Shown here piece after piece: positions 22,936 to 60,099 of a stretch of 64,000 nt of DNA. The translations under genes and the position numbers were made by a program. Below the pieces are notes generated by a model, which was given only the letters and a program-made list of their open reading frames with translations, searched no databases and had not been told where the DNA came from. Position 1 is the first letter of the stretch, and the number at the start of each line of letters is the position of its first letter. Source of the stretch: Methanobacteriota archaeon (GTDB taxonomy: Archaea; JAADCQ01; Methanopyri; Methanopyrales; Methanopyraceae); contig JAMOPO010000015.1 in NCBI GenBank assembly GCA_027064425.1, positions 192,001 to 256,000 of the forward strand, given 5' to 3'.

Positions 22936-22962
22936 CACGAACCTTTTTTCAAAGCTGATTGA

Positions 22963-22995
22963 GTATTACTCTCAGCTCAACCCGTAATCTTTAAG
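22963..22995 (+). promoter_or_regulatory. Putative NikR-type operator abutting a TATA box
   Basis: GTATTA-N16-TAATCT (core ATTAC-N14-GTAAT inverted repeat) running into TTTAAG, about 45 nt before the ATG at 23037. Confidence 0.5.
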
Positions 22996-23036
22996 TCGCA
23001 ACCCAGGGCGCCGGCGTCGGGGGTGAGAGCACCTCG

Positions 23037-24782
23037 ATGAGAGCCCCCGCGCTGCTTCTCGTCCTAGCGTCCGTCCTGGTGGCAACCGGGGTTCCGGCCA
23101 GCGCGGCGTCGGAGCGGGACGTCAGCCAGTGCCTGCAGGATTGCATCAAGTGGCTGGTGGAGAACCAGTTCACGGAGCAGGACGTGGGCAAGTCGTGGAC
23201 GTTCGAGGATCCGGGCGGCACGTACCAGGGTGCCAGGTACGCGGTGCACTTCGCCACCGAGGAGAACGGGCAGCTGAAGGACCAGGGTCCGGCTAAGGAG
23301 GTGCTCCGAGTCGAGCAGTACGACGTGGGCGTGTGGCCGGCCACGTTCAAGGGCGACAACCGGATCATCGCGGTGAGGGCCAGCCAGTGCGCGTTTCGGG
23401 ACAAGTACGGCCTGGAGGCCGTGCAGGTGGGTAAGTACATCGCGGCGCTGGTGGACAGGTCCAAGCGCGTGATCTACGTGAAGCCGTCCAGCAAGTACCC
23501 GGGCGTGCTGTTCGGCGGCGAGCCGGCGTACTCGTCGACGAAGTTCGCCGTCCCGATGCTGGTTCTCGCGGTTAAGGAGGGCGTCAAGGATCCAGCCTTC
23601 AAGGAGGCCGTGAAGCGCGCCGTGAAGTGGGTGCTCACGGTCAACAAACCGCGCGGGTATTACTACCAGCGGTCGCTGGCGGCGATCCGCGAGAAGCTGG
23701 AGAAGGAGGGCAACCTCACGACCAGCATCGGCGGCGCGCTGTACTACTACGTGATTCCGCTGCTGCTGGGCCGCGAGCTGGGGATCGTGGACGACGACCT
23801 GTGGAACCAGTGCAAGGACCACGCGCTGTACATCCTGAGGCACGCGGTGCTGGCGCCGGAGGTGCACTGGAAGACGTGGGCCGAGTACCGGAACGTTCTC
23901 GTGATTGACGCGAAGGGCAAGCTGGCCTACTGGCTGAGGCAGAAGCGGAAGGAGGGTGAGTGGGTCAGCTACAGTCGGACGTACGACACCGCGGCGGCCG
24001 TGCTGGCGCTGGTGCACGCGATCAAGCTCGGGCTACTGAAGCCGGACGAGGAGGTTCAGATCGGTGAGGTGAAGGTCAAAGTCGGTGACCTGGTCCGGTA
24101 CGCGACGAACGCGCTGGTGAGGTTCTTCGTCGAGGGCTGCGGCAACCCGTGCTACCTGGAGAAGCAGGCGGTGGAGCAGGGAGTCTACTGGAAGTCGTAT
24201 TACTACCCGGTGAAGTACTCGTTCTACGCCCTGTGGGCGATCCGGGACGCGAGGGAGGCGGGGCTGCTCGGTGACTACGCGCGGAAGCACCTGAGCGTTG
24301 CGCTGCGGCGGTACGTGGGCTGGCTGGAGGGCATGCAGCTGGAGGGCAGGCCGGGGTACTTCCCGTACAACGAGTACATCCTGGGCTCGCCGGACTTCGC
24401 GAGCACCTGCGCCGCGCTGCTGGGCCTGTGCATGGCGGTAGAAATGGGACACCGTAGTCCGACAGCGATCGACCTGATCAAGAGGGTGGTTGACGCGCTG
24501 ATCAGCCAGTACAGGGACGCCAAGAAGCGGGGGCTGAAGTACCTATTCTACGTGCCGACGCCGGAGAGCAGGTACTACCTGTACATGTCCAGGTTCTTCG
24601 CGGACCGCAGCGTGAACGAGGTGGCGTTCGCGACCGCACACGCGGTGGCGGCGCTGGCCGCGGTGGAGAAGCTGCCGGCAGACGTTAAGAAGCAGGTTCT
24701 GAAGGGCAGGAAGGTGCCGGTGGCACCGGTAGTGATGGCGGCGGTGGCACTGCTGTTACTCAGGCGCCGCCTCCCCGCCTAA
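23037..24782 (+). CDS. Secreted alpha/alpha-barrel (prenyltransferase/terpene-cyclase-like) protein with C-terminal anchor
   Basis: Signal peptide; repeated WL..xQ motifs (IKWLVENQ, VGWLEGMQ, DALISQ) and TAxAxxAL helices; C-terminal VPVAPV-TM-RRR. Confidence 0.7.
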   Translation: MRAPALLLVLASVLVATGVPASAASERDVSQCLQDCIKWLVENQFTEQDVGKSWTFEDPGGTYQGARYAVHFATEENGQLKDQGPAKEVLRVEQYDVGVWPATFKGDNRIIAVRASQCAFRDKYGLEAVQVGKYIAALVDRSKRVIYVKPSSKYPGVLFGGEPAYSSTKFAVPMLVLAVKEGVKDPAFKEAVKRAVKWVLTVNKPRGYYYQRSLAAIREKLEKEGNLTTSIGGALYYYVIPLLLGRELGIVDDDLWNQCKDHALYILRHAVLAPEVHWKTWAEYRNVLVIDAKGKLAYWLRQKRKEGEWVSYSRTYDTAAAVLALVHAIKLGLLKPDEEVQIGEVKVKVGDLVRYATNALVRFFVEGCGNPCYLEKQAVEQGVYWKSYYYPVKYSFYALWAIRDAREAGLLGDYARKHLSVALRRYVGWLEGMQLEGRPGYFPYNEYILGSPDFASTCAALLGLCMAVEMGHRSPTAIDLIKRVVDALISQYRDAKKRGLKYLFYVPTPESRYYLYMSRFFADRSVNEVAFATAHAVAALAAVEKLPADVKKQVLKGRKVPVAPVVMAAVALLLLRRRLPA

Positions 24783-24802
24783 ACGCCCCCGCTAGGGGGT
24801 TC

Positions 24803-27800
24803 TTGATGAAGGACGTCCGACGCCTCGCCCTCCCTCTAGCGCTCCTCCTAGTTCACCTCCCGGTCCAGACGGAAGCGTCCCCGCTGCAGGACTCTCCCCA
24901 CCACCTCGTCGTCGTGACCGGGTACTGGTCCCTGGGGCTACCGGCCGCCAAGGCTGCCTCCGGACTGCCCGTCACGGTCGTCGTGGAGGACGCCGTGTCT
25001 CACGGATTCGTCTCACCCGACGCGGTCAAGGAGGCGATCCTGCGCGCCGACACGATCCTACTAGTTCACACGAGGAGCAACCCGATCCTCGGCACGATCC
25101 TAGCGAACCTGCCCGCCGGGAAGCGGGTGTTCGTGTACAACAACGTGCTCCCGAAGCCGCAGGACGCCCGGAACCTGGCGGACGTCACGGTGGAGTGGGA
25201 GGGCGTCACGATACCGCTCTCCCTGTACGTCCAGTCCCGCTCTGAACGCAACCTCCGGAGCCTATTCGAGTACCTGCTGACCGGGCGACCGGGCCCGTTC
25301 CACCCGTTCGACGGCTGGGTCGAGGGCTACGACTACGAGCGCGACGAGATCGTGCGGCCCGAGGATCCCGGTCCGGAGGAGCTCCGGGAGGCGCTCTCCC
25401 GGTACGGATCCGCGCCCGTCTACCTGGGAGATCGGGCGTACCCGCGGTGGTTCGTCGAGCTCCTTAAGTCCCGGCTGCCCGACCTGATCCGAGAGGTACT
25501 CTCGCACGAGCCTCGGCGCGACGGCCCGGCGGTCCTGATCGTCTGCGACTCAACCGCGCTGGAGTGCGGGTGGACGGCCCCGCTGCGAGAGCTCTGCCGG
25601 GCGCTGGTCAAGCGCGGGCTGGCGCCGCTGGTGCTGGCGCTGCACTACGACCTGCTGGACGGGGACCTGGAGGACGTCCTCCGGGCCCTGCGCGAGACGG
25701 TGAGGCGGCTCAACGTCCAGGCCGTGATCTTCCTGGCCGGCTTCTTCCGCATGCGCTCCCCGGACTCCCCGGAGGTGAAGCTGCTTGAGGAGCTCGGTGT
25801 GCCCGTGGTTAAGGCGATCAGGCTCGGGCACACGATGACGGAGTGGCAAGCGTACTGGCGGATGCCCAGCGGCATGGACTGGTCCGCGCTGTACCACATC
25901 GTGATCCCGGAGAACCTGGGCCTGATCGAGGGCATCCCGATCTCGGTCCGCGAGTGGCGGACGGACGGTCCGAGAACCCTGCTGGGCGGCGTCTGGCGCG
26001 CGGACGTGCCCGTCCCGCCCATGGTCGAGCTGCTGGCGAGCCGGGTGGCCGCGTGGGTCAAGCTCCGGCTGAAGCCGAACGCGGAGAAGCGGGTGGTCAT
26101 CCTCTACTGGGCGGCCGAGCCGGGCAAGGAGGGAGTGGGTGTCGCCTCCTCGCTCGACGTCTCGGCCTCGATCGTCAACTTCCTCGCCTGGCTGCTGGCG
26201 CGCGGGTACCGGGTCGAAATCCCGCGGGAGCTCGCCGAGTACCTCCGGCGGTTCGCGGACGAGGTTCCCCGGGACTCCGAGCTGTACCGGGCGCTGAAGT
26301 CCGGCTCGATCGAGGAGGTGGTCAGGGCGATTCGAGGCACGCTCCTCGAGATCAACCGGCTGGAGGTGGAGGCGGAGGAACTCGCGGAGAAGGGTGGGTG
26401 GAGGCGGGCGCTCGAGCTCTACGCGCGGGCTTACCGCCTCATGCGGCCCCTCGCCGACGCGCTCGGCCGGTTGATGGTGGAGGAGGGCTCCAACATCGGG
26501 GCCTACATCCTGCGGCGCGTGCGGGCCGAGGACGGCAGGCTCGTGCTGGAGCTGCTGGCCTACGAGAACGGCAGGTTCGTGCGGAGGGAGTGGGAGGTCC
26601 GCTACGTTCATCTCCTGCCGCTCGACGAGTACCTGCGCTGGTACCGTACCCTGCCGGAGGAGGCCAGGCTGTGCGTGGAGAAAGGCATCTTCGGGTACCT
26701 GGAGGCGCTGCTGAGGTTCGTGAAGCGGTACGGTCCGGTGGTGGATTCGCTGAAGCTCCGGGCGCTGACGAACGGGTTGAGGTCGCTGGTGGCGTACGTC
26801 GAGGGCCACCTGCAGTACCTCCAGCTGTCCGACCGGGAGCGTCGGGAGTTCCTGGGCGACCTCCGGTCGCTGGTGGAGGACGTCGTCTCCGCCCTGACCG
26901 ACCCGAACCGGGTGGATGAGGCGCTGCACCGGTGCGAGGAGCTGCACCGGAAGTGGTCGCGGGTGGAGGCGCTGTACGGGTGGTTCACGGGGTGGGGTCC
27001 GCCCGAACGCTCGCGTTACCTCGTCGAAATTGACGGGAAGAAGTACTTCGTGATTCGCGGGATCCGGTTCGGGAACGTGCTGGTCGCGCCGCAGCCGGCG
27101 CGCGGGTACTACGTGGGCATCAGCGTCGCTTACCACTCCACGATCCTGCCGCCCTGTCACTATTACCTCGCCTGTTACTACTACTTCACCCGCGTTTTCC
27201 GCGCGGACGTGATCGTGAACACGGGCAAGCACGGCACGTACGAGTGGCTCCCGTACAAACCCCTCTTCATGTCCTGGTGGGACTTCCCGCAGATCTGCAT
27301 CCAGGACGTTCCACAGGTGTACCCGTATTACGTGGCCGACCCCTCCGAGGCGCTGGTCGCGAAGCGGCGGGGCTGGGCCGTCCTGGTTAACTACCTGCCG
27401 GAGTCGCTGGCCAGGTGCGAGCTGGAGGACGAGTGGGGCGAGCTACTCGAGCTCCTGCGAGAGTACCTGTCCTCGGGCCTGAGCGTGTACCGGGCGCGGA
27501 TCCTGGAGCTCGTCAAGAAGACGCGGGCGTACGAGCTCCTGAACCTCAGCTCGCTGGAGGAGTTCGAGCGGGATTTTGACGGCAACTGCGCCCGGCTCTA
27601 CTTCCTGCTCCACGACCTGGAGGAGCACGAGGTGGTTCCGGTCGGGCTGCACGTGTTCGGGATGCCGCCGTTGGGTGAGGATCCCGTCGAGACGCTGGCC
27701 AGCTTCGCCGCGAAAATCCTGGTGAACGAGACGCTCGGCGCGCTGGACTACCCGCGCGCCCTGGAGCTCTGTCGGGAGGTGATCGAGCGGCCGGAGGCGA

Positions 27801-30800
27801 GGGAGTCCGACGAGCTGCACCGGGAGGCGGCGCGGGTCGTGGAGCTGCTCTTCCAGAGCGCGCGGCTCGAGCGGGAGAACTTCCTCCGCGCGCTCGAGGG
27901 CCGCTACGTTCCACCAGGGTACGCCTCGAGCCCGTTCAAGGAGATCGACGCGCTGCCCACGGGCAGGAACTCCTGCATGTTCGACCCTCGCAAGTGGCCG
28001 GACTGGATCTCGATCAACCCCGCGTACGCGGTGGCGATCCCCCTCCGACTGGTCGCGAAGAAGGTCGTCGCGTTCGACTGGGCGACGGATAACATCAACA
28101 CGCGGGCGCTGCCGATCGCGGTGCAAATGCTGCTGCTGGGCGTTCTCCCACGCCGGAACTCTGAGGGGGTCGTCGTCGGCGTCGACCCGTGCGCGCCGCT
28201 CCGCCCGAACGCCGTGGCGGGAACGCGCCGATACGGCCAGGTCCTGATCACGGGCAGGCTCGTTCGCATGGATCTCTTGGGTTCGGGCACGGTGCGCCTG
28301 GTGGTCGCACCGCCCGGCGGCGGGACCGAGATCGAGGTGCGAGCCCCGCTCGACTCCCTCCCGTTCCCGCTGTTCGTGGGCGACCACGTGACGATCCTGG
28401 GCACGCTGGTTCCGCCCGAGCGGAGGGTGGAGCTGCTGGACGCCGAGGTGCTGAGATCGTACGAGGGAGGGTACCTGACGCCCACCGAGCTCGCGGCCGT
28501 GGGAAGCGTGGCCTCGGGCCCCGTCGTGGTGAAGGGAACGGTCAAAGAGGTCAGCGGGAACTTCCTGGTGGTTACGGACGGGACGACGGACGTCCGGTGC
28601 TGCGTCGCGGGTCCCGTGCGGGTGAGGCCGGGCGAGACGGTCTTCGTGCGCGGGCGACCGCTGATCCAAGAGGAGCCGCCGATCGTGTCCGCGACGCTCG
28701 TGCTCCGGGGCCGGCTGACGCGGATCACGGACGTGATCGTGCTCGGCACCTCCTGCTTCCGGGACGTGTTCGCCCACAACATCCTCGCGGAGCTGTTCCT
28801 GGGCCGCGCGGCGGCCATTTTAGCGGCGGAGCCGTACCTGGCGGCGGAGCTCGGTGTTCCCTCCTTGGTCGGAGCGCGGGTGAAGGGGGCGAACGTCCCC
28901 GGGCTCGTGCTGGAGCGACTGCGGGAGATCGTGGGCCGGTTGCGGCAGGGTCGGTGGGAGAACCCGCTGCACGAGACCGTGCTGCGGGTCTACGAGGCGG
29001 CGCTGGACCTGGCCTCCTCCATGGGTAGGGAGAGGTTGGCGAGGCTGCTGTGGGAGGGGTTGAAGTCGCTCTACGCTCAGGTTCAGGAGGCGTGCTCGCA
29101 GCAGGGGCTGAGCTTCGACTCCGTGCTCTCTACGGCCAGGGAGCTGGCGTATCTCGCGCCACCGAGCGAGAACTACGCGTTCCTGGACTGGGCGGCGGTC
29201 TACCTGGCGCTACTCGCGTGCCGGGAGCGTGAAGTCAGCGCGCCGCTCCGGGCTTGGGTGGAGCAGGTCCGGAGGATCCCGGAGGCGGATTACCCGCTCC
29301 TGGCGGCGATCGACGTGTTCTGTCAGGCGCCCGGTGACTACACGAACGTGATCGGGAAGACGATCGAGTCGGGCGCGTTCCTGCTGGAGGAGCGGGTTAA
29401 GCTGGCCCTGACCTGGATCTCCGCGATGAGCTACCTGTACGGGCCGCGGTACTGGGGCGTCAGCGTGCCGCTGCTGCTCGCGCTGAACCTGGCGGTCCCG
29501 GACCACACGCTCCACACGATGGTCTCCTCGGACGAGAAGGCGACGTTCTTCTACGACGACTGCATCTACGCGTTCGAAGGCGGGATGCGGCTGGCCGTCG
29601 AGGCCGTGAACGGGCTGGCGCCCGAGCAGGAGCCGGAGATCGGCATGCTCGTGCTCAACCTGCGCCACGCCGCCCTCGGGACCTACACCGGCGGCGACTA
29701 CTCTCGAACGGTGTACCGGCTGGCCCACGTCGCCGAGCTGATCGCCCGCGCCAACCCGAGCCTGGCCCCGTGGCTCCGCGACCTGGCGTCCAGCCTGGCG
29801 GCCGGTAACCTGATGGCGGCGATGATCGCGAGCAACCTGACCCTGCTGATGCAGCCGTCGACCGAGGCGGAGCTGCGGGCGCTGCGCGGCGACCTGACGG
29901 CCGCGTACCGGTACGCCCTGCTGATGCCGTTCCAGTCCTACGCCTGGTACGACCTCATGCGCACGGTCTTCAACCCGCTGTATCTGCGCGGCAAGCGGTT
30001 TCACGGCTACTCAGGTGCGGTGGACCTACTCAAGCGACTCGACTTCCTGATCACCGGCTGGAGCACCCTGACGCCGGGCCTGCTCGGCTGGAACGGCATC
30101 TTCCGCCGCGTCGCCCGGGTTCTGGTCGAGAACAGGTCCTGGCTGGCGCGTTACGCCCCGGAGAGTCTGCTGTCCGTCTCGGTCAAGCTCCTGGTGATCG
30201 CGTTCGATCGGGCCCGGTACGGGCTGGTGAGCGGGGAGCTGCTGCGCAGCCCCGAGTTCGTGCAGCTGGTCCGCGAGGTCATCGTGCCCGAGCTGCTTGA
30301 GGGCGAGCTGTGCTGCTGCCCGGCCGTGTGCGGTAACCCAACGATTCAGGAGCGGTTCCTGCAGGCGCTCGCGGCCTACGAGTCCATCATCCCGCAGGTG
30401 CGTCCGGCCATCGCGGTCTTCACGACCAACTACGTGGGCCGGCCGATCCCAGGCCGGACCGCCAACGTCACCACCGCCCCGGGAGCGGCGCCGGCCCCGA
30501 CCACCGTCGGCCCGACGCCCGCATCGTCCCTCGCACCGACCGCGGCTCCGGCGACGACACCGGCGGTCAGCCCCGCCGCCCTCCCCGCGCCCAGCCCGGC
30601 GCCGCGGCGGGTCTTGAACGCCCAGGCGCCGAGTGCCACCACGGCACCGGTCTCAACATCTACCTCGGGCACCCCGGCGACGAGCGGTACGCGGTCCATC
30701 GCCAGCACCGCCGCGGCCCCCTCAGCCAGCGCGCCGGTCAGCCCGATGACCGGAGCCAGAACCGCCGTCCGGGTGGCCAGAGCGGTGGCCGCCGTCGCGG

Positions 30801-31174
30801 AGGCGTCGGTGAGGGCGCCGGTCCGGTCCCTCGCAACCGCCGTCCGGGGTACCGGAGGGGGAGCCTCGATCTCGACCGTGGGTGCGGCGCTCAAGTCGGT
30901 CGGGGCCGGTTCCGAGCGCGCTGGGGGCGGGAAGTCCGGGGCGTCGGTGAGGGCGGTTCAGGCGGGCGCCGCGTCTCGCGGCGGTGCGTCCGCGCCGGCT
31001 CAGGCTCGGGCTCGGTCGGCTCGGGTCATGGTGAGGTCCTCGCCGGCGACCCCGGCCTCCCAAGCGCCACGCTGGGTCCTTTACGCGCTCATTGCGGCCC
31101 TGCTGATGTCGGTGCTGGCGGTAAGCGTGGGGTACTCCCGGAGGGCTGGGATGTCAAGGACTCCAGGGTGGTAA
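24803..31174 (+). CDS. Exported CobN/Mg-chelatase H family protein with C-terminal TM anchor
   Basis: LRLKPNAEKRV, FGNVLVAPQPARG, PPCHYYLA, GKHGTYEWLP, AKRRG, GLHVFG and LPTGRN CobN motifs; signal peptide; Pro/Ala/Thr linker at about 30460-31060; C-terminal TM. Confidence 0.88.
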   Translation: MMKDVRRLALPLALLLVHLPVQTEASPLQDSPHHLVVVTGYWSLGLPAAKAASGLPVTVVVEDAVSHGFVSPDAVKEAILRADTILLVHTRSNPILGTILANLPAGKRVFVYNNVLPKPQDARNLADVTVEWEGVTIPLSLYVQSRSERNLRSLFEYLLTGRPGPFHPFDGWVEGYDYERDEIVRPEDPGPEELREALSRYGSAPVYLGDRAYPRWFVELLKSRLPDLIREVLSHEPRRDGPAVLIVCDSTALECGWTAPLRELCRALVKRGLAPLVLALHYDLLDGDLEDVLRALRETVRRLNVQAVIFLAGFFRMRSPDSPEVKLLEELGVPVVKAIRLGHTMTEWQAYWRMPSGMDWSALYHIVIPENLGLIEGIPISVREWRTDGPRTLLGGVWRADVPVPPMVELLASRVAAWVKLRLKPNAEKRVVILYWAAEPGKEGVGVASSLDVSASIVNFLAWLLARGYRVEIPRELAEYLRRFADEVPRDSELYRALKSGSIEEVVRAIRGTLLEINRLEVEAEELAEKGGWRRALELYARAYRLMRPLADALGRLMVEEGSNIGAYILRRVRAEDGRLVLELLAYENGRFVRREWEVRYVHLLPLDEYLRWYRTLPEEARLCVEKGIFGYLEALLRFVKRYGPVVDSLKLRALTNGLRSLVAYVEGHLQYLQLSDRERREFLGDLRSLVEDVVSALTDPNRVDEALHRCEELHRKWSRVEALYGWFTGWGPPERSRYLVEIDGKKYFVIRGIRFGNVLVAPQPARGYYVGISVAYHSTILPPCHYYLACYYYFTRVFRADVIVNTGKHGTYEWLPYKPLFMSWWDFPQICIQDVPQVYPYYVADPSEALVAKRRGWAVLVNYLPESLARCELEDEWGELLELLREYLSSGLSVYRARILELVKKTRAYELLNLSSLEEFERDFDGNCARLYFLLHDLEEHEVVPVGLHVFGMPPLGEDPVETLASFAAKILVNETLGALDYPRALELCREVIERPEARESDELHREAARVVELLFQSARLERENFLRALEGRYVPPGYASSPFKEIDALPTGRNSCMFDPRKWPDWISINPAYAVAIPLRLVAKKVVAFDWATDNINTRALPIAVQMLLLGVLPRRNSEGVVVGVDPCAPLRPNAVAGTRRYGQVLITGRLVRMDLLGSGTVRLVVAPPGGGTEIEVRAPLDSLPFPLFVGDHVTILGTLVPPERRVELLDAEVLRSYEGGYLTPTELAAVGSVASGPVVVKGTVKEVSGNFLVVTDGTTDVRCCVAGPVRVRPGETVFVRGRPLIQEEPPIVSATLVLRGRLTRITDVIVLGTSCFRDVFAHNILAELFLGRAAAILAAEPYLAAELGVPSLVGARVKGANVPGLVLERLREIVGRLRQGRWENPLHETVLRVYEAALDLASSMGRERLARLLWEGLKSLYAQVQEACSQQGLSFDSVLSTARELAYLAPPSENYAFLDWAAVYLALLACREREVSAPLRAWVEQVRRIPEADYPLLAAIDVFCQAPGDYTNVIGKTIESGAFLLEERVKLALTWISAMSYLYGPRYWGVSVPLLLALNLAVPDHTLHTMVSSDEKATFFYDDCIYAFEGGMRLAVEAVNGLAPEQEPEIGMLVLNLRHAALGTYTGGDYSRTVYRLAHVAELIARANPSLAPWLRDLASSLAAGNLMAAMIASNLTLLMQPSTEAELRALRGDLTAAYRYALLMPFQSYAWYDLMRTVFNPLYLRGKRFHGYSGAVDLLKRLDFLITGWSTLTPGLLGWNGIFRRVARVLVENRSWLARYAPESLLSVSVKLLVIAFDRARYGLVSGELLRSPEFVQLVREVIVPELLEGELCCCPAVCGNPTIQERFLQALAAYESIIPQVRPAIAVFTTNYVGRPIPGRTANVTTAPGAAPAPTTVGPTPASSLAPTAAPATTPAVSPAALPAPSPAPRRVLNAQAPSATTAPVSTSTSGTPATSGTRSIASTAAAPSASAPVSPMTGARTAVRVARAVAAVAEASVRAPVRSLATAVRGTGGGASISTVGAALKSVGAGSERAGGGKSGASVRAVQAGAASRGGASAPAQARARSARVMVRSSPATPASQAPRWVLYALIAALLMSVLAVSVGYSRRAGMSRTPGW

Positions 31175-57894: not shown

Positions 57895-60099
57895 TTGACG
57901 GGTCACAAAATCGACTCGTGGTTCCCGATCACTCTCGTCTCGGATGAGTGCGAGCGCGAGCGAGGGCTCGGGTCACCGGTTGGGGTGCTCCCAGGGTTCA
58001 GGTCGCCGCTCGCGCTGGCCCGGGCGGTGGTCCTGCTGAGCCTCTCCACGGAGGACGCGGAGCGGGAGGCTCTGCTTCCGGCGCTGCAGCCGGTCATTGG
58101 GGAACCCTGGAGGACCTCGATCGGGGCGCTGGGCGAGGAACCTGAAGAGGTGCGGGTCTTCGGTGATGGGTCGGTCGCGCTCGAGGCGGCGCGGGCGGGG
58201 CGGCGGGTCCGGCTCGTTGCACCCGATCCCGCGATCGCCCGGTTCTTTGAGGAGGTGTTTGGGCGACTGTTGGAGGAGGGCGAGGAGGCGCTGGAGGAGT
58301 TGGCCGGCTTCCTCCGGCAGGTGGGAAGGGTCCTGAGGAGGCGGCTCAGTGACCTCTACGGCGGTGGGGAGCGGGCTTACCTGTGGATCAAGCGGGTGAG
58401 GTGCCCGCAGTGCGGGCTCCTGATACCGCTCATGGAGCACCGGTGGATCGTGAAGGGAAGCTGTGCGTTAAGGGTGGAGGTGCCGGAGGGCGGTGACGAG
58501 GTGGAGTTCGAGGTCGTCGAGCCGGAGGAGGCCGGTCCGGGAACCCTCCGGGCCGGCCGCGTGACCTGCCCGAGGTGTAGGGAATCGTGGGGGCTGGAGA
58601 GGGTCCGGCGGAGTTTCCTGCTCCGGGCCGCCAGGGGAGGCCCCGCCGGAGCGTACCTGGCGGCCGTCGTGGAGGACGGCTCGGTCCGGTCGGCCACGGA
58701 TCCGGACCTTGATCGCGTCGAGCGGGCCCGCGAGCTGGCCCGTGAGCTGGGCAGAAGCCGGCTCCTGCCGTGCGAGGACCCACCGGGGTGGCTCCGGAGG
58801 TGGGGCGTTTGGGACGTCTCCTGGATGTTCAACAGCAGGCAGCTGGCCGCGCTCCTGGAGGCCGTCACCGTGACCCTCAACGTCGGTGAGAGTCTGGAGT
58901 GGTGCAGGGTCTGGGCCGCCGCCGTCCTGACCGAGCTCTCCCTGCGGAACTCCGTGCTGTCCCGCTGGGACCCGGCGGTCGGGGAACCAGGGAGGGCTGA
59001 AGGCTGGGCGTGGGAGTACGGGGAGCTGCCCGTTCCCCGGGCGTGGGAGAAGGTTTCCAGTGAGATCCTAAGGGCCTGTCGGGAGCTGATCGAGGTCGCG
59101 GAGGGTGTCGAGGTGGAGGTCGAGGTGGCCGACGGTGGGTGGGGGGTGGCTCGGGACCTCCCGGACGCGCTGTTCCGGGCCTGGTCGGGGGCCCTGCTGA
59201 ACGCGCCGGTGTGGGGGACGGAGGGACGAGGCGGGAGCTCGATCCTCGGCGGGCTCAGCTGGGGTGGCCGATCCTTCCTCGTGCTCCGGAGTGACCGGGT
59301 GGCGGAGCGATGGATGGAGGTCGTGGGGGAGATCGTGGGCCGGGGGCTCAGGGCCGCGTCGGCGTGGCCGGTGTTCGGCGAGAACGTGCTGGTGGTCCCG
59401 CTGGTCGAGCGCGAGTCGCCCGAGGAGGTTGACTGGGAAGACGTCGTCTCCGAGGTGAGGGACGCCGTGCGAAGGCTTCTGGACGCGGCGCGCGACCTGG
59501 AGGGGCGCGGGTGGGAGTCGGTGGGGGTGGTGCCGTACGCCGCCGCCCTTCCCCCGTGCACGGGGCTGGACGTCGTCAAGCGGGGCGGGGACAGCCTGAG
59601 CATCCGGCAACCCGAGGTCCTCTCAGAGGTGCTCGCGGAGGGCTGGCGAGAGCTGGTGACGGCGGTCCTGGAGCTCCTCAACGTGGGCGTGTCGGACCCG
59701 AGGGCGCGGTTCTACGCGGTGTACCGGCTGCTTTGGGGGTACCGCGAGTCCTGCGATCCGCCGAGCCGGAGGAGGCTCGAGCCGCTGCTGAGGGCGCTGA
59801 AGCTGGACCCGGACGAGCTGCCGTACCTGAGCGCGGACGGCAGGCTGGAGTCCTACCGCGAAAGGCGCGAGCTGCGGCCCCGAGAAGACCCCGTCAACGC
59901 GTTCCACGCGGCGCTGTTGGCGGTCAGGGAGGGCGCCCCGGAGTCCGCGCTGGAGGGGGTGCCGGAGAACGTTAGGAAGGAGGTCCTCGAGCTGGCCCGA
60001 GCCGTGATCCGGGCGGCCCGCCGCTGCGGCGAAAATCACCCCGAGGTGGAGCTGGCGCGGAGGCTCCTCGGGGTGTCGGTCGGTGTCGCGGGGCGATGA
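57895..60099 (+). CDS. DUF1156-family adenine DNA methyltransferase homologue, catalytically degenerate
   Basis: IDSWFP...PLALARAV, AYLWIKRVRCPQCG..IPL, CPRC, FNSRQL, NSVLSRWD and WEYGE; the SAM motif is reduced and no DPPY is present. Confidence 0.75.
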   Translation: MTGHKIDSWFPITLVSDECERERGLGSPVGVLPGFRSPLALARAVVLLSLSTEDAEREALLPALQPVIGEPWRTSIGALGEEPEEVRVFGDGSVALEAARAGRRVRLVAPDPAIARFFEEVFGRLLEEGEEALEELAGFLRQVGRVLRRRLSDLYGGGERAYLWIKRVRCPQCGLLIPLMEHRWIVKGSCALRVEVPEGGDEVEFEVVEPEEAGPGTLRAGRVTCPRCRESWGLERVRRSFLLRAARGGPAGAYLAAVVEDGSVRSATDPDLDRVERARELARELGRSRLLPCEDPPGWLRRWGVWDVSWMFNSRQLAALLEAVTVTLNVGESLEWCRVWAAAVLTELSLRNSVLSRWDPAVGEPGRAEGWAWEYGELPVPRAWEKVSSEILRACRELIEVAEGVEVEVEVADGGWGVARDLPDALFRAWSGALLNAPVWGTEGRGGSSILGGLSWGGRSFLVLRSDRVAERWMEVVGEIVGRGLRAASAWPVFGENVLVVPLVERESPEEVDWEDVVSEVRDAVRRLLDAARDLEGRGWESVGVVPYAAALPPCTGLDVVKRGGDSLSIRQPEVLSEVLAEGWRELVTAVLELLNVGVSDPRARFYAVYRLLWGYRESCDPPSRRRLEPLLRALKLDPDELPYLSADGRLESYRERRELRPREDPVNAFHAALLAVREGAPESALEGVPENVRKEVLELARAVIRAARRCGENHPEVELARRLLGVSVGVAGR

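Follow-up and report, generated by a model that had tools for sequence, protein, structure and literature searches.

Class I tetrapyrrole chelatases of the canonical CobNST and ChlHID type are located in the cytoplasm and operate with AAA+/VWA partners. The synthesis of F430 and the anaerobic synthesis of cobamides employ small class II chelatases, and to our knowledge no role has been assigned to the many CobN/ChlH paralogues of methanogens. Here, we describe a two-gene locus in a 64-kb stretch of DNA (G000:C15:192001-256000, hereafter the window; coordinates without a contig name are window positions) that encodes a secreted protein with a predicted (alpha/alpha)6 toroid fold, P0001, and an exported CobN/ChlH-family protein, P0002. 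In our reading, to which we assign a probability of about 0.5, the two would form a surface module of an anchored toroid and a tethered CobN-like protein that performs ATP-independent metal-tetrapyrrole chemistry, encoded in an operon that NikR may repress.

Among described systems, HmuS and BtuS of Bacteroidota share a superfamily with P0002 and offer the closest model for how it might work. HmuS is described as ATP-independent and membrane-anchored outside the cytoplasm, with Met-79, His-254, and body motifs as its defining features (PMC12583661); P0002, in contrast, has an archaeal host. NikR operators have the form GTATGA-N16-TCATAC in E. coli and GTGTTAC-N13/14-GTAACAC in delta-proteobacteria; the published boxes of the latter form include the variant GTaTTAC (Table 4 in PMC545781). 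In Methanothermobacter marburgensis, a CobN1-annotated protein and NikR1 are reported to be abundant only when nickel is limiting (PMC12350162), and the proposed module fits that report. In the accessible portions of the literature on CobN in methanogens, archaea, and Methanopyrus and on NikR in Methanopyrus, no description of exported archaeal CobN-like proteins or of a toroid partner was found. The locus bears on the open question of the archaeal CobN/ChlH paralogues, a large subgroup of which appears to be exported and tethered, with an apparently intact core in P0002.

The genome under study (G000) comprises 1.54 Mb in 57 contigs, with a G+C content of ~68%. All close homologues of P0001 and P0002 are labelled Methanopyrus or Methanopyraceae, and genes for methyl-coenzyme M reductase and a PolD-type DNA polymerase are present; together, these features identify the predicted host as a hyperthermophilic methanogen of the genus Methanopyrus. 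Five other Methanopyrus genomes (G001-G005) were used for comparison, making six in all.

Organization of the locus

Both genes lie on the forward strand as a tight unit: gene 1 (P0001, 581 aa) at 23037-24782 and gene 2 (P0002, 2123 aa when counted from a TTG codon) at 24803-31174. The close spacing of 20 bp pointed out in the initial annotation of this DNA was confirmed. The gap measures 20 nt to the TTG and 23 nt to the ATG at 24806, from which the database form of P0002 begins, and a GGGGG run is found just upstream. The next gene in the 3' direction is convergent and overlaps the end of P0002; therefore, the unit consists of two genes. Signal peptides, anchors, and transmembrane segments were called by eye from the sequence, and this reading bore out the signal peptides and C-terminal anchors that had been assigned to both products.

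P0002, an exported protein of the CobN/ChlH family

P0002 matches PF02514 with an E-value of 1.9e-136 (456.9 bits at a cut-off of 24.5), which substantiates its earlier description as CobN-like; its scores against the NCBIfam CobN and BchH equivalogs stay far below the cut-offs (280 vs. 822 bits). The best matches among Protein Data Bank sequences were CobN (9uk9, 4.4e-50) and ChlH (4zhj, 3.7e-46), followed by HmuS (9d26, 6.2e-31). The best-conserved chelatase core spans residues 730-1130 (26990-28192, +) and, like CobN and ChlH, contains the GxHGxxEW, YxY, and PSE motifs.

In ChlH, according to a review, H621, E660, and H1174 are essential, and H621, Y653, E625, and Y651 line a proton channel (PMC13297055). 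In an alignment with cyanobacterial ChlH having the same numbering at H621 and E660, P0002 residues H810, E814, Y840, Y842, and E849 occupy five of the six ChlH positions (H621, E625, Y651, Y653, E660, and H1174). All five are kept in 9/9 orthologous rows, at an overall identity of ~60-65%. The catalytic core of P0002 thus seems intact, which argues for catalysis rather than mere binding.

Unlike CobN and ChlH, P0002 is predicted to be exported and tethered and carries ~900 extra residues. The putative signal peptide, MKDVRRLALPLALLLVHLPVQTEA|SP, comprises residues 1-25 (24803-24877, +; cleavage at TEA|SP). Relative to the canonical proteins, helical inserts are present at residues 532-597 and 628-729, together with further inserts and an insertion at residues 1131-1284 (28193-28654, +), beta-rich by sequence, that has no counterpart in canonical CobN/ChlH or in the other three exported paralogues. 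An invariant CCCPxxC motif (residues 1837-1843; 30311-30331, +) lies just past the canonical CobN C-terminus. It is followed by an A/S/P/T-rich low-complexity tether of ~230 aa (30380-31066, +), a predicted C-terminal transmembrane helix (residues 2091-2111; 31073-31135, +), and a basic tail ending in GW.

The absence of CobST/ChlID partners at the locus, noted earlier, was corroborated: no chelatase ATPase gene was present among the 20 neighbouring open reading frames (ORFs) scanned, so that P0002, in contrast to CobN and ChlH, has no adjacent ChlI/ChlD or CobS/CobT. Mg_chelatase-family AAA+ matches are present elsewhere in G000. The operon neighbours are housekeeping genes, and no hmu-type gene (HmuY, HmuR, HmuT, HmuU, or HmuV) was found among those scanned.

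One property of P0002 tells against the proposed module: the position of ChlH H1174 is occupied by an invariant cysteine (Cys1587); the same position is Asp in Pseudomonas CobN and His in the cytoplasmic CobN of G000. Sequence comparison, moreover, ranks HmuS, the ATP-independent model, behind CobN and ChlH; its alignment with P0002 covers a single stretch (P0002 residues 737-894). This weakens the suggested link to HmuS/BtuS, which extends to a common superfamily.

The HmuS model also gives rise to an alternative, namely that P0002 functions as a heme dechelatase of the HmuS type and obtains iron from heme in the environment, with nickel and cobalt uninvolved. HmuS is the only family member reported to be both ATP-independent and extracytoplasmic (PMC12583661), and BtuS-annotated proteins of Methanosarcina barkeri are reported to rise upon a change of the iron/sulfur source (PMC10846266). 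We nevertheless regard this alternative as improbable, given the weaker, one-stretch match to HmuS, the lack of an hmuYRTUV-type context among the neighbours scanned, and a promoter half-site in common with nikR (see below); the 2025 HmuS paper itself, in the part available to us, calls the role of the archaeal homologues unclear (PMC12583661).

P0001, a secreted toroid protein

The AlphaFold2 (AF2) model of P0001 (pLDDT 87.9, pTM 0.87) shows an (alpha/alpha)6 toroid into which beta strands are inserted at residues 53-159 and 275-313, as expected from the alpha/alpha barrel proposed for this gene in the initial annotation. The putative signal peptide, MRAPALLLVLASVLVATGVPASA|AS, covers residues 1-23 (23037-23105, +; cleavage at ASA|AS), of which residues 1-20 have low pLDDT. 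At the C-terminus, residues 560-578 (24714-24770, +) form a predicted sorting or anchor signal composed of VPVAP, a hydrophobic stretch, and RRR. Signals of this type ([VIL]P.x.P, hydrophobic stretch, RRR) are found in eight predicted proteins of G000, six of them in CobN-like loci. A match to the exosortase/archaeosortase family PF09721 (29.4 bits) is located at C57:74083-74445.

Fold comparison with VIA-align (best 50 rows) placed drimenyl diphosphate synthase first (8zgw; Z 22.7, rmsd 3.5, 290 residues aligned), followed by oxidosqualene and squalene-hopene cyclases and then by glycoside hydrolases and epimerases; residues 26-544 match the cyclase toroids at Z 20-23. The class II terpene cyclase/prenyltransferase-type (alpha/alpha)6 toroids form a fold class that also includes transcobalamin. 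The alpha6/alpha6 barrel of transcobalamin and intrinsic factor, to which P0001 had been likened, is thus also seen in the P0001 model, and the likeness holds at the level of fold class only. Transcobalamin was not among the best 50 matches listed, which weakens the comparison drawn in the initial annotation.

P0001 shares its fold with the class II terpene cyclase/prenyltransferase-type toroids, and its paralogues show weak to clear SQHop_cyclase_C matches. Unlike the terpene cyclases, P0001 itself has no match in Pfam (E up to 0.1) or NCBIfam, is secreted and anchored by prediction, carries the beta insertions, and belongs to a family restricted to Methanopyrus: among 1.84 billion representative proteins it has seven relatives, and those with a source name are from Methanopyrus. 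With regard to the terpene cyclase DxDD motif, P0001 has VDDDL at residues 251-255, in which D253 alone is invariant across 11 family rows. Orthologues of P0001 were obtained by searching the comparison genomes; a separate search with P0001 for related loci in the contig collection yielded no relative. All scores in an atlas search with P0001 were below 0.9.

Recurrence of toroid and CobN-like modules in the genome

PF02514 matches occur at seven loci of G000. Two are of the cytoplasmic type (one intact, one split), and five encode predicted exported proteins, each of which starts with a signal-like segment and has, towards its C-terminus, a low-complexity tail and a helix with a basic tail ending in G/R/K-W. 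All five exported genes adjoin, or are one gene away from, a gene for a secreted toroid. The toroid assignment rests on fold evidence for P0001, on 24% identity to P0001 over 372 residues and a weak Pfam match for its paralogue P0012, on SQHop_cyclase_C matches above the Pfam cut-off for C15:84021-85616 (49.4 bits) and C57:153698-154897 (40.8 bits), and on weak Pfam matches for C3:59842-61347. The pair containing P0012 was located by tblastn at C15:327107-334581. Both the P0001 and the P0012 pairs are kept in G001 and G002, where the flanking genes differ. The five toroid and CobN-like modules, and the secreted protein, predicted to have a class II chelatase fold, that one of them encodes, are new relative to the initial annotation.

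This secreted protein is encoded at the C3 locus, where the toroid gene is followed by a gene for a C-terminally anchored protein of 490 aa (C3:58221-59693, -). The protein has a sub-threshold CbiX match in Pfam (E 0.0068) and an invariant PYHGSYDPHW motif. Its model, built from a four-row alignment, is of moderate confidence (pLDDT 69.2). Class II chelatases or related proteins, including ferrochelatase, account for all of the best 38 structure rows, with CpfC at Z 15.1, SirB at Z 14.3, CbiK at Z 12.6, and FetB at Z 12.0; the next row has Z 8.3. The orthologues in G001 and G002 lie 2.6 kb from CobN-like matches. If the predicted model holds, two unrelated tetrapyrrole-chelatase folds are exported and clustered, and this would be the strongest indirect argument that the modules handle metallo-tetrapyrroles.

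In the CobN-like partner of P0012, R and G replace the catalytic His and Glu (2/2 rows), and this protein, at least, may be non-catalytic, a point against the proposed chemistry. It also lends some weight to a different explanation, in which the CobN-like proteins and the toroids are structural or adhesive parts of the envelope, built from old folds and taking no part in metal-tetrapyrrole chemistry. A long low-complexity tether, anchors, large lineage-specific insertions, and the existence of five paralogues would suit such a role, and similar toroids appear among bacterial surface proteins (atlas leads, with the sub-0.9 scores given above). We consider an envelope role unlikely in view of the five active-site and channel residues retained in every orthologous row of P0002 despite the limited overall identity, and of the second, unrelated chelatase fold secreted in one module.

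In G000, the CobN-like partner of P0012 (C15:327107-333188, -) is divided into two overlapping frames; in G001 and G002 it is a single frame of ~1940 aa, and the split in G000 is, as far as the frames tell, a frameshift or assembly error. The split cytoplasmic-type CobN (G000:C26:28882-32281) consists of an N-terminal piece (+, 690 aa) and a C-terminal piece (-), which are adjacent and divergent; the C-terminal piece has one TAG inside the match, and the same layout is found on contig C75 of G005. The helix with the basic G/R/K-W ending is found in all five exported CobN-like proteins and in one other protein.

The promoter site and its possible relation to NikR

The inverted repeat on which the initial annotation was based, GTATTA (22963-22968), 16 bases, and TAATCT (22985-22990) running into TTTAAG (22990-22995), is present upstream of gene 1. 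Its arms are complementary at 4/6 positions in this register. A better register is GTATTAC-N14-GTAATCT (22963-22990), which agrees with a perfect GTATTAC-N14-GTAATAC at 12/14 positions and which we treat as the candidate operator. With up to two mismatches, the strict pattern occurs once in the window, against a mean of 0.01 per 64 kb in shuffles (a match in 1/100 dinucleotide shuffles). The right arm abuts a TATA-like box, CTTTAAG (22989-22995, +), 41-47 nt 5' of the start codon, a position expected of an archaeal repressor site. Calling CTTTAAG a probable TATA box is reasonable because a box resembling it, CCTTTAAA, is found at a comparable distance from the start in the mcrB promoter of G000.

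As in the NikR operators, the site has two 7-bp arms 14 bp apart, and GTATTAC is the variant listed among the published boxes. A single NikR gene, the presence of which the proposed control presupposes, is found in G000 at C15:59676-60119. Its promoter contains GTATTAC-caa-GTATTAC at -46 and -36, so that the left arm of the gene 1 site is an exact copy of the nikR repeat unit. Related tandem repeats occupy the same place in 5/6 Methanopyrus genomes, as GTGTTAC-taa-GTATTAC in G003 and G005, GTGCTAC-caa-GTATTAA in G001, and GTGTTAT-caa-GTATTAA in G002. The 7-mer is common to the nikR promoter and two of the five toroid-gene promoters, the second being that of P0012, where the half-site is present in G000, G001, and G002; the P0012 promoters of G001 and G002 have GTAATAA-N17-GTAATAC.

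Exact half-sites (GTATTAC, GTGTTAC, or a reverse complement) fall within -200 to +10 of 20 of the 1380 genes predicted by a crude GC3 gene finder. These 20 include nikR, P0001, P0012, the N-terminal piece of the split CobN (GTAACAC at -31), and mcrB (-78); the remainder are unrelated genes or artefacts. About 0.1 matches would be expected at the seven CobN-family loci, a count that is exploratory since it was made once the motif had been seen.

Control of the operon by NikR is plausible on this sequence evidence, though we hold it tentatively, at somewhat short of an even chance. Close to that is the probability we give to a competing explanation, namely that the operon is real while the site is a chance AT-rich promoter sequence or belongs to another regulator, with expression insensitive to nickel. 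The rarity of the strict pattern, the two copies of the 7-mer in the nikR promoter with related tandems in most of the genomes, and its presence at the paralogous toroid promoter in three genomes speak against chance.

A series of observations nevertheless weakens the case for NikR. The right arm, GTAATCT, matches at 5/7 positions only, and a loose scan of non-coding DNA for pairs of half-sites (any of four variants, 3, 13, or 14 bases apart, with up to two mismatches) returned 6 pairs against 5.9 in 30 shuffles, which is not above chance; the significance of the two-arm site therefore varies with the strictness of the motif definition. That half-sites are enriched at CobN-family promoters was a post hoc observation. 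Two of the 20 half-site matches fall within the frameshifted CobN-like gene, and a third falls within the opening codons of an adjacent ORF; the promoter intergenic DNA of the other three exported modules contains no exact half-site. The nikR promoter of G004 lacks tandem repeats, and in G000 the nikR repeats are direct and 3 bp apart, unlike an N14 palindrome. The promoters of the gene 1 orthologues differ in the arrangement of their half-sites: G001 and G002 have GTAACAT-N14-[G/A]TATTAA, whereas G004 has GTAACAC and, farther away, ATATTAC. Some half-sites coincide with TATA boxes. One example is TATTAAT, the second of the elements preceding the gene 1 orthologue in G001 and G002, which is at the TATA position. 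The promoter of the single CbiM/NikM-type transporter gene has one-mismatch half-sites only, one of which, TTAATAC, is kept in 6/6 genomes at the expected position of a TATA box and is probably that box. Finally, another palindrome, AGCTGA-N13-TCAGCT (22953-22977), with perfect 6-nt arms around GTATTAC, overlaps the candidate operator; it was not seen in the orthologous gene 1 promoters compared.

As to the NikR-like geometry originally claimed, the inverted 7-bp arms at N14 and the identity of the left arm with the nikR repeat support it, while the degenerate right arm and the chance-level loose scan do not. The anticipated recurrence of GTATTA-N16-TAATAC at nickel and cobalt transporter genes was not borne out: the whole genome contains no copy of this pattern, of GTAT.A-N16-T.ATAC, or of GTATGA-N16-TCATAC, and GTATTA-N16-TAATCT occurs once, at the gene 1 promoter.

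Several half-sites and genes were recorded alongside this analysis. The CbiM/NikM-family gene (C27:129796-130362; PF01891, 110.9 bits) is present in 6/6 Methanopyrus genomes; Table 2 of a published BLAST survey gives no NikM for Methanopyrales (PMC10617489). The GTAACAC at G000:C26:18559-18565 precedes mcrB (C26:18637-19971, assigned by Pfam) by 78 nt, and [G/A]TAACAC is found at the same place in 5/6 genomes; the whole promoter is well conserved, which leaves this conservation little weight on its own. A half-site at C57:152246 was not counted as promoter evidence, since it is the match that falls within the opening codons of the adjacent ORF.

Proposed mode of action

In the two-part surface module that we favour, the toroid P0001 would be held close to the membrane by its short C-terminal anchor, and P0002 would act as a tetrapyrrole-binding subunit of the class I chelatase type on a flexible tether of ~230 residues extending from the C-terminal helix. 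With no extracellular ATP or AAA+ motor, such a subunit would be limited to binding, release, and favourable metal exchange. P0002 could therefore work on a metal-tetrapyrrole without ATP, either removing the metal in the manner of HmuS on heme or carrying out a favourable metal insertion. The toroid may be a carrier or docking partner that passes on or takes up the macrocycle. Prediction of a complex between P0002 residues 1120-1460 and P0001 residues 24-556 returned no verdict (score 0.00, mark 0.32). A factor binding GTATTAC beside the TATA box would probably repress transcription; the strongest candidate is NikR, in which case the operon would be repressed by nickel. The substrate, the direction of the reaction, the contact between the toroid and P0002, and the control by NikR are what we infer. 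As the metal, nickel is favoured solely on account of the promoter evidence and the parallel with M. marburgensis.

A more far-reaching proposal is a cell-surface system of tetrapyrrole-based metal acquisition, in which tethered class I (CobN-like) and class II (CbiX/ferrochelatase-fold) chelatases, supplied by toroid carriers, would insert nickel (or cobalt) into a porphyrinoid outside the cell, or strip it from one, without ATP and under the control of NikR. If true, it would also explain the many CobN paralogues of methanogens; we regard it as speculative and improbable.

Distribution outside Methanopyrus

In 10 other archaeal genomes, 14/14 CobN-like ORFs (1467-2394 aa), picked by length as long PF02514 open frames, had a signal-like start and a hydrophobic and basic end. 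Judging from these sequences, export of CobN-like proteins is widespread in archaea. Pairing with a toroid has a narrower distribution. Among 151 genomes, PF13243 and PF02514 occurred within 5 kb of each other only in G000, G001, G002, and G004; in G016, G039, and G123 the two were on separate contigs or more than 1 Mb apart. The scan scored no more than four candidates in each genome, and PF13243 picks up some toroids but not others. A crude look for repeat motifs found no toroid neighbour at 10 loci of other archaea. Pairing thus appears to be confined to Methanopyrus among the 151 genomes, as far as toroids detectable with PF13243 are concerned.

Other features of the window and the assembly

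P0003 (20050-22935, 961 aa), a secreted protein encoded directly upstream of the operon, does not qualify as a third member of the module, since in G001 and G002 its relatives are ~37-38 kb away from the toroid and CobN-like pair. It has no Pfam match and does not resemble the secreted protein encoded next to the C15 module. An Rfam scan of the whole window matched no family at the gathering score. ARAGORN predicted an 83-nt tRNA-Gly(TCC) at 58588-58670, within a long ORF (57895-60099) that has no Pfam match; Rfam reported no tRNA at this position at the gathering score. Toroid-like SQHop_cyclase matches were also observed on the small contigs C9, C10, C39, C43, and C55 (1.7-5.5 kb), which may represent the same genes from variant strains in the assembly.

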